Shown here: one piece after another, positions 49,773 through 50,841 of the stretch
How the letters are laid out: each line of letters opens with the position of its first letter
Position numbering within the stretch: position 1 is the first letter of the stretch
Source of the DNA: a bacterium
Lineage (GTDB): Bacteria; UBA8248
Reading direction: 5' to 3'
DNA: 64,000 bases
Assembly: GCA_965204535.1 (NCBI GenBank)
Contig: OZ241996.1
Span: forward strand, 128,001-192,000
The notes under the pieces: generated by a model
Told to the model about the DNA's origin: nothing
What the model saw: the letters and a program-made list of their open reading frames with translations, nothing else
Databases searched by the model: none
Made by a program: the position numbers and the translations under genes

Positions 49773-49917
49773 GCAGAACAGGCTGACATCGATTGGGTTC
49801 CTGCTACTGCGACTTTCGGTGAAGCCGCGCCACATTCAGCAGGCGACTAGGAAAATGGATGGATGATCGGAGCCGCTGTAGGTTGAGACATAGGTCGCCC
49901 GGTATTCCCTGCTCTGC
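49773..49917 (-). ncRNA. Candidate structured RNA / leader motif, copy A
   Basis: Closing stem GCAGAGCAGG/CCTGTTCTGC; internal GGCGAC/GTCGCC and CCTGCT-GAAT-hairpin-TAGCAGG-AACCCA shared with copy B. Confidence 0.5.
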
Positions 49918-49922
49918 ATTCG

Positions 49923-50669
49923 TTACCGTCCATGCTTTTTCAACCACTCTTTTGCGAGACGGTTCGCCTCATTTATCTCACCAAGCATCATTCTTTCATA
50001 AAGCCATTCTTTGGCTCTGATTGCCCTTTTTCTCATATCCTTGTCTTTGATTCTGGCGTCTTTTCCTATTGCACCCACGATATTGAACCACATATAAGCT
50101 TTGGTATTATCTTTCTCTATCAATTCTCCTTTGAGGTACAAAAACCCCAGATTCAAAGCTGCGGGTGGATGTCCTTTCTGAGCGGCTTTCGCATACCACT
50201 TAATCGCTTTTTTCTCGTCCCACGGAACGCCTCGTCCGTTCGCATACGCCCATCCCATGTTGTATTGCGCTATCATGTGCCCTTGTTGGGCCGCCCTTTT
50301 GTTCCACTCCGCTGCCGCCTCCTCGTCTTTCTCGACGCCGTATCCTCTCCGATACATGACGCTCAATATATGTTGCGCCGCCCTACTTCCATTTTCCGAC
50401 TTTTTTCGTAACCCCGGTTCCGCTTTACGAAACCATTTCTCGGCCTCATCCTTGTCGAGCGGAAGACCACGTCCTTTTTGATACATGAAACCTATAGCGT
50501 ACTGAGCTCTTGCATTCCCTTCCCTAGCGAGGGGCATCAAAATCTCTACTGCCGCAATGTAGTTTGCATTTCGATATTCATCCCATCCTTTTTTCAAGTC
50601 GTTTGCGATGGAACCTGAAACAAATAGAACGAGAAGAAAAAAAACGACGAATAAGATGCGCTTGAGCAT
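49923..50669 (-). CDS. Secreted Sel1-repeat protein
   Basis: Signal peptide; AQYAIGFMYQKGRG, AQYNMGWAYANGRGV, AALNLGFLYLKG repeats. Confidence 0.9.
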   Translation of the reverse strand: MLKRILFVVFFLLVLFVSGSIANDLKKGWDEYRNANYIAAVEILMPLAREGNARAQYAIGFMYQKGRGLPLDKDEAEKWFRKAEPGLRKKSENGSRAAQHILSVMYRRGYGVEKDEEAAAEWNKRAAQQGHMIAQYNMGWAYANGRGVPWDEKKAIKWYAKAAQKGHPPAALNLGFLYLKGELIEKDNTKAYMWFNIVGAIGKDARIKDKDMRKRAIRAKEWLYERMMLGEINEANRLAKEWLKKHGR

Positions 50670-50727
50670 GATATTCCTCTGGTCGAGCAGTCGAAATATT
50701 CCCGGCCAAGCCCCTCGCCGGGCCGGT

Positions 50728-50841
50728 CTCCCAACAACTCACGGATTCATGGTGGGTTCCCACCTATTCCGGCCTCGGGAGAGACCGTTTTGTATTCAGC
50801 GGGCGACCCGGACACAAGGTCGCTCCGCAAGCTGTTGGGAG
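50728..50841 (-). ncRNA. Candidate structured RNA / leader motif, copy B
   Basis: 18-bp closing stem CTCCCAACAGCTTGCGGA/TCCGTGAGTTGTTGGGAG with G-U pairs; GCGACC/GGTCGC; CCCGCT-GAAT-hairpin-TAGGTGGG-AACCCA. Confidence 0.5.

Follow-up and report, generated by a model that had tools for sequence, protein, structure and literature searches.

The two structured elements studied here, A and B, belong to one family of RNAs of about 120 nt; copies of this family are, in the reading that we hold to be probable, promoter-led leaders related to the phage antisense RNA sRNA-Xcc1 that serve as self-addressed antisense switches on the exported-protein gene behind them. Judged by comparative sequence analysis, each typical copy has a promoter, a strand at the predicted transcription start that serves as target, a closing stem (Y/Z) and a conserved arm, together with a guide of variable sequence fitting its own target only. 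It is best read as a compacted, domesticated relative of sRNA-Xcc1 in which the upstream pairing alone survives, as a locus-specific 17-bp outer stem. Both elements lie in the window, by which we mean the whole 64,000-nucleotide stretch of DNA that was analysed.

Two copies in one gene island

The initial annotation had described an ordered set of minus-strand words in two intergenic spacers, each enclosed by an outer stem (10 bp in A, 18 bp in B) and containing an inner hairpin. The words, stems and hairpins all lie where it placed them, with G-U pairs on the minus strand as the sole departures in the outer stems. Its start positions also stand, whereas both 3′ ends had to be moved, to 50718 in B and 49767 in A (Table 1). 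The 3′ strand added in this way, Z, pairs with the CGGGUCG/CUAGUCG segment at 8/8 positions in B and 7/7 in A, and a 9-bp stem that had been overlooked is among the four covarying helices.

Table 1 Features of elements A and B and of the surrounding island, in window coordinates
Feature	Position	Strand	Details
Island	47872..52633		direct repeat of 404 bp at either end, 47872-48275 and 52230-52633
Lipoprotein gene	48338..49723	-	461 aa with a lipobox-like N-terminus and a HELLH motif; matches a TbpB-type barrel weakly (E 0.003)
Element A, divergent copy	49767..49917	-	P1 49917-49908/49782-49773, 10 bp
A, internal parts	X 49898-49894; Y 49850-49844; Z 49773-49767	-	insert of ~45 nt between X and Y
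A, arm	P3 49843-49838/49805-49800; loop 49837-49829; P4 49828-49809	-
Sel1-repeat protein gene	49923..50669	-	gene behind B; 248 aa, signal-like N-terminus, GC 0.46
B, hairpin P5	50702..50726	-	predicted fold, sequesters Z; present in the G014 orthologue despite gene exchange behind P5
B, Z	50718..50725	-	closing stem, 3′ strand; 8/8 pairs with Y; beyond the extent first annotated
B, linker W and P1 3′ strand	50728..50758	-	P1 3′ strand 50745-50728; putative antisense guide
B, conserved arm	50759..50803	-	equivalent of the sRNA-Xcc1 core; P3, internal loop, P4
B, arm P3	50803-50798/50764-50759	-
B, arm loop	50797-50788/50769-50765	-	GAAUACAAAA/GAAUA
B, arm P4	50787-50770	-
B, Y	50804..50811	-	closing stem, 5′ strand; equivalent of the sRNA-Xcc1 outer stem
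B, segment X	50817..50823	-	decoy able to pair with Y, 7/7 pairs
B, P1 5′ strand	50824..50841	-	outer stem, 18/18 pairs, covaries; putative promoter-proximal target site
B, sigma70-type promoter	50849..50877	-	-35 TTGTCC 50877-50872, 17 nt, -10 TACACT 50854-50849
Upstream low-GC island genes	50886..51930	-	TPR protein 50886-51434; 159-aa protein 51451-51930

Element B is a canonical copy of the family. Its outer stem begins 7 nt past the promoter, and it folds far more stably than shuffled sequences (z -6.3 on the sense strand, -3.4 on the antisense strand). Folded in isolation, the piece from Y to Z is predicted to adopt the sRNA-Xcc1 topology, including a third local hairpin before the 3′ strand, a feature that family-wide does not rise above shuffles (23/44 and 17/36). 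The guide pairs with its own target at -31.9 kcal/mol, compared with -7.6 to -14.0 kcal/mol for the targets of ten other copies.

Element A, which begins 5 nt past the Sel1 stop codon, is a divergent member. We found no promoter in front of it, its fold energy is not unusual against shuffles (z -0.9), and its pairwise similarity to B is modest, being equalled by 3 of 2,000 shuffles and 2 of 814 unrelated tiles. A core HMM trained without A missed it; with the covariance model it is the second of two matches in the window, at 17.5 bits and an E value of 0.2. We accept it on the strength of five paired helices that follow the order seen in the family (10/10, 5/5, 7/7, 7/7 and 7/7): every helix is kept and the changes in Y/Z are compensated, with two conserved A and two conserved G altered. 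A canonical loop-E strand was considered for A and dropped, as it needs a bulge. There is no homologue of A in 22 genomes of the genus, a pattern search found no A-type subfamily, the orthologous spacer of genome G014 lacks it, and the motif stands beside none of 26 homologues of the lipoprotein. A is likely to be a weakened or promoterless internal copy.

A covarying, promoter-led leader

The annotation had proposed a candidate cis-regulatory RNA associated with genes for exported proteins. A structured, strand-specific leader tied to such genes is supported by covariation, promoter position and signal-like cargo. In a MAFFT alignment of copies picked by pattern, P1 (17 bp), Y/Z (8 bp), P3 and P4 are paired in 91.6% of cells, with double changes in 30 of their 35 pairs; none of 500 shuffles reaches this level, and slid controls give 33-47%. 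A second set comprised 40 copies found by the covariance model, one from each of 40 of the 49 carrier genomes of one Acidobacteriota family. There, Y/Z is 98.6% paired though not modelled as pairs (one pair is GC in 21 copies and AU in 19), P1, P3 and P4 are 95.4% paired in the fitted alignment, and the loop consensus is A(A/C)URNRANAC.

Two decoys, X and P5, compete with Y/Z. The decoy X pairs better than shuffled versions in 44/49 copies, with no covariation over shuffle; P5 does so in 39/49, but its local fold appears in 42/49 compared with 75% in controls. In predicted folds of the whole leader, P1 is formed in 43/48 and Z lies within P5 in 43/48, while Y pairs with Z in 1/48. As isolated pieces, by contrast, Y and Z close on each other in 47/48 and 38/39.

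Patterns and an iterated HMM whose seed included A give about 16 copies in this genome (G000), and a covariance model built from 44 copies gives 17, A not among them. The pattern occurs in 20/22 genomes of the same genus (none with a reversed control), in 102 stretches of GTDB contigs and in 22 matches from JGI metagenomes, of which the covariance model confirms 19; three fail, and one metagenome match, L084, is probably due to chance. By covariance model, copies are present in 24/51 genomes of the phylum, again in 20/22 of the genus, in 49/101 genomes of one Acidobacteriota family and in 2/61 of the Maricaulis family. Five other genomes carry 10, 7, 28, 11 and 1 copies, the 28 being in a gammaproteobacterium. 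Carriers belong to the Nitrospinota, Acidobacteriota, Alpha- and Gammaproteobacteria, with a 5′-truncated form in one Chloroflexi MAG, and include 'Candidatus Spongiihabitans' and the cultured Maricaulis parjimensis DSM 16078 (one copy); going by these taxa, most would be sponge symbionts. The distribution is patchy and clustered, not vertical. A plasmid blastn with B returned chance-level pieces only, and the full family pattern is absent from IMG/VR. The accessible portions of the literature on sponge and marine bacteria hold no description of the motif or its core letters, and supplementary files could contain one.

A sigma70-like promoter lies 4-10 nt (mode 6-7) before P1 in 61/105 copies, compared with 20/839 shifted positions and 0/105 antisense positions, and in 15/40 copies of the second set, compared with 0/320. 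P1 begins 6-7 nt past the -10 box, and the lengths of P1 and the linker are near-constant. Among 85 dereplicated copies, 59 are followed within 200 nt by an ORF with a ribosome site. By a hydrophobicity heuristic, which is not SignalP, 35 of these 59 ORFs are signal-like, compared with 81/552 genome ORFs, and in the second set the proportion is 26/39 compared with 2/54. The proteins are otherwise unrelated, with ankyrin, Sel1, TbpB-like and 17-kDa antigen types represented and 22/29 having no Pfam family. Some copies stand in tandem without genes or head long leaders.

Kinship to sRNA-Xcc1 and phage antisense RNAs

A gathering-level Rfam scan of the window gives no matches, and at E ≤ 10 nothing relevant falls on the motif in the region, in B alone or in 19 loci. 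The annotation had matched the elements to no riboswitch or ribozyme class. The family is not without known kin: in other copies, the arm and the stem that closes it resemble sRNA-Xcc1 (RF02221) at scores under the gathering threshold. In-register matches occur on 9/20 Acidobacteriota loci at 22-33 bits (best 32.8; gathering score 53) and on two copies of genome G060 at 33-35 bits (best 35.0); B, 19 other loci and G000 yield none. Reciprocally, the family model matches 6/10 loci found with RF02221 and 27/44 prophage loci found with the core pattern, at E ≤ 1.

sRNA-Xcc1 was cloned as an 88-nt RNA (PMC2996969). In the accessible portions of later reports, it precedes symE within integron cassettes (bioRxiv 2025.06.18.660453) and an ORF6N gene of APSE (bioRxiv 2020.03.17.996009), is present in seven copies in Xylella (PMC12189769), and is described as multi-copy and mobile (PMC12189769, bioRxiv 2025.06.18.660453). 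The core pattern occurs in at least 120 IMG/VR stretches. Among the 32 ORFs scanned behind prophage copies, out of 79 listed, 20 are of antirepressor type (P22_AR, KilA-N, Rha, AntA, Bro-N, ORF6N), one is SymE and 11 are unassigned. The variable segment of these prophage RNAs pairs with its own ribosome site better than with swapped ones in 58/58 cases (-18.2 compared with -11.1 kcal/mol), and its own upstream site beats swapped ones in 67/69. This arrangement is that of P4 CI with seqA and seqC (PMC4825925, PMC3632133), the C4/CI logic; according to the portion of the source available, CI pairs with sites both up- and downstream of itself (PMC4825925).

The family shares with sRNA-Xcc1 a closing stem of 8-10 bp, in that Y/Z aligns to the RF02221 outer stem; an arm with a AAUACAANAC/GAAUA loop (an AAUACAA-ACC/GGGAAUA internal loop), from which A departs at two conserved A; and a variable segment before the 3′ strand that pairs with a promoter-proximal site. 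It differs in several respects. Family copies stay below the gathering score, the best reaching 35 of 53 bits. In the family, the predicted transcript opens with the 17 nt of the target, which lies some 30 nt ahead of the RNA (Y), whereas the median distance in Xcc1 is 107 nt, and target and guide of the family form one continuous helix of about 17 bp. A U-tract separates target and RNA in 58/69 Xcc1 loci but in 0/48 of the family, where one follows P5 in 1/48. A ribosome-site target is not group-wide in the family (17/30 and 17/28 better than swapped). The family arm is stacked on the closing stem without a linker, with CGGG/CCCG near-invariant, and the cargo consists of exported proteins, as opposed to antirepressors or SymE.

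With P4 CI and its seqA and seqC, and with P1/P7 C4, the family shares an antisense segment inside its own transcript, an upstream target and a tRNA-like closing stem, which is followed by RCCA in 31/39 Acidobacteriota copies, 6/48 copies elsewhere and not in B. C4 (RF01695) and IsrK (RF01394) give no match to the family at E ≤ 10, and unlike CI and C4 the family has no detected downstream target or terminator and does not lie in prophage immunity regions; no antirepressor family appears among the 29 downstream ORFs scanned or the genes of the window. On the sequence evidence, the family is a member of neither RF02221 nor C4, whether by score or by two defining features, yet it is alike in anatomy.

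A candidate switch, its alternatives and its mobility

How such a leader might work can be sketched from modelling and from the phage systems. In the whole leader, the guide would pair in cis with the target to form P1, with Y bound by X and Z held in P5; the Xcc1-like fold would thereby be suppressed and the mRNA would stay whole. The piece from Y to Z alone is predicted to fold like sRNA-Xcc1 and, by analogy with P4 CI and P1 C4, could be cut out as an RNA of about 90 nt by RNase P at the tRNA-like stem. CI and C4 RNAs are listed as RNase P substrates in the available part of one report (PMC5499578), and all five carrier genomes tested have a gene for RNase P RNA. A freed guide would occupy the target of new transcripts from the same locus, and this occupation would allow them to adopt the cleavable fold, lowering expression and releasing more of the small RNA in a positive feedback. 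The complementarity of guide and target is locus-specific: among 11 copies of this genome, self pairing lies between -29 and -33 kcal/mol (-19 kcal/mol for A) and cross pairing mostly between -4 and -20 kcal/mol, with two cross-reacting pairs.

The output step is the weak link of the switch model, because there is no terminator and the predicted accessibility of the ribosome site shifts in opposite directions in the two sets (8 easier and 17 harder of 31; 15 and 7 of 25). Both known outputs are missing, since a ribosome-site target is not detectable for the group and there is no U-tract; the guide of B pairs with the Sel1 ribosome site no better than with that of the next gene. The 17-bp cis helix may also outcompete any trans guide.

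A broader scenario is one that we entertain tentatively, as a doubtful possibility: in four phyla of marine host-associated bacteria, a phage immunity RNA may have been turned into orthogonal, self-reinforcing switches, up to 28 per genome, each of which would turn one secreted or surface protein on or off, heritably and independently of the others. If so, phase variation would proceed with the DNA unaltered, and a 17-bp code would supply the addresses. For the control of the many Sel1, ankyrin and lipoprotein genes with exported products in symbionts, the family offers one shared, testable device across phyla and a carrier in culture, M. parjimensis. The comparison would also recast sRNA-Xcc1, which has been presented as a virulence sRNA acting in trans, in the role of a C4/CI-type switch, and the family offers natural orthogonal guide-target pairs. 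Standard Rfam annotation overlooks every copy.

Another reading, which we consider unlikely, is an orphan riboswitch sensing a ligand or protein, in which P1 and Y/Z coexist as a pseudoknot, the A-rich loop binds the signal, and X and P5 act as anti-aptamer. That P1 and Y/Z both covary fits this idea, as do the near-constant lengths of P1 and linker, start codons 29-58 nt past Z in 26/31 cases, and two folds within a few kcal/mol of each other before any loop penalty. Like the second-messenger riboswitches (c-di-GMP-I/II, c-di-AMP), the family has many copies per genome, lies 5′ of disparate envelope genes, as the available part of one source describes for GEMM riboswitches (PMC7266159), and has competing helices. 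Covariation, however, cannot show that two helices coexist. The phage Xcc1 RNAs share the loop, and their variable part is explained by antisense pairing; that of the family is likewise address-like. Neither a terminator nor a consistent ribosome-site switch or platform emerged from the predicted folds, and the second-messenger classes do not match at E ≤ 10. Among signalling enzymes, a single weak GGDEF domain turned up in G000 and a DAC was not found in G060, counts that decide nothing either way. More generally, no known riboswitch aptamer model matches the window, the region, B or the tested loci.

Alternatively, a captured phage switch may have been frozen by its cis helix into a constitutive module, a promoter with a 5′-protecting stem for new genes. 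P1 does begin at the predicted start site and dominates the whole-leader folds, and the modules move with varied cargo. This would leave unexplained the best-conserved parts, the arm and Y/Z, which that fold suppresses and which are retained also in the 40 copies not picked by pattern, as well as the RCCA of the Acidobacteriota copies; we judge it quite improbable. A self-cleaving ribozyme, its pseudoknot timed by decoy helices, is very improbable: the HDV-like helix order, conserved A-rich loop, tolerant inserts and gene-less tandem copies speak for it, but no ribozyme family matches at E ≤ 10, there is no conserved C between P1 and Z, the linker is 0-4 nt, and the kinship to sRNA-Xcc1 points elsewhere. 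Likenesses to hammerhead, HDV and hairpin ribozymes, T-box, c-di-AMP and guanidine-III RNAs fail on register or in Rfam.

The four genes around A and B form an island whose bounding repeat is the 3′ end of the S41 peptidase gene; genomes G002, G008 and G014 lack the island at this position. G014 has the four genes elsewhere, with B intact and Sel1 only 46% identical between flanks of 84-89%, the Sel1 block having been exchanged just 3′ of B. At three other loci compared across five genomes, promoter-RNA units have been inserted or relocated, with no copy kept at empty sites. The annotation had offered a single-stranded DNA recombination site shuffling cassettes as a second reading, and such an attC-like role is largely refuted and extremely improbable: the motif recurs beside low-GC genes, the Sel1 exchange abuts B, one empty-site junction lies 5 nt past Z and sRNA-Xcc1 itself is carried in integron cassettes (bioRxiv 2025.06.18.660453, in the part available), but in the other empty-site comparison both junctions fall outside the RNA, empty sites retain no copy or half-site, the cassette at locus L001 ends hundreds of bases away at short microhomology, three DNA contig sets are evenly covered and have no joints where the motifs lie, no integron integrase exceeds the cut-off in five carrier genomes, and promoter spacing is fixed.

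In sequencing run X1, the contig to the left of the island (44500-47853) has a depth of 96 and the island part at 47998-52266 a depth of 26, which suggests a more abundant strain without the island; in X2 and X3, the depth of the repeat contig is roughly doubled. The window also holds three tandem copies of a DDE transposase region (36700-41700, 90-99% alike), which we take to be IS1182-like, two adjoining tyrosine integrase genes with Arm-DNA-binding domains and high repeat depth (55449-57846), and a toxin-antitoxin-like pair of a RES-domain gene and a 224-aa upstream partner (45031-46355).

Several other copies have distinctive settings. The sole copy of M. parjimensis (L106) lies between integrase and resolvase genes, which places it within a mobile island of this cultured strain. 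The 5′-truncated copies (L004:3006-3082, L010 and L011, at C2 379383, 1585651 and 2392974 of G000; eight similar ones in G002; and L059) are without the P1 target, carry a promoter-like sequence directly before Y and form part of a repeated element that includes a tyrosine integrase gene; they seem nearer to the plain sRNA-Xcc1 form. L008 (G000 C2 ~1230900-1231800) and six orthologues have a leader of about 700 nt with three units before a lipoprotein gene, two of them with altered yet conserved loops, and in the upstream unit a stretch of the target of the following unit is duplicated. Tandem or divergent arrays of two to four promoter-RNA units without intervening genes occur at L049:1927-2901, L061:1719-2342 and L078:1762-2085. 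Finally, in the L012 family (G000 C2 2470159) a copy is fixed at one locus genus-wide; parts of P1 are repeated downstream around a conserved ribosome site and a very short ORF, after which two genomes have a decayed lipoprotein gene.
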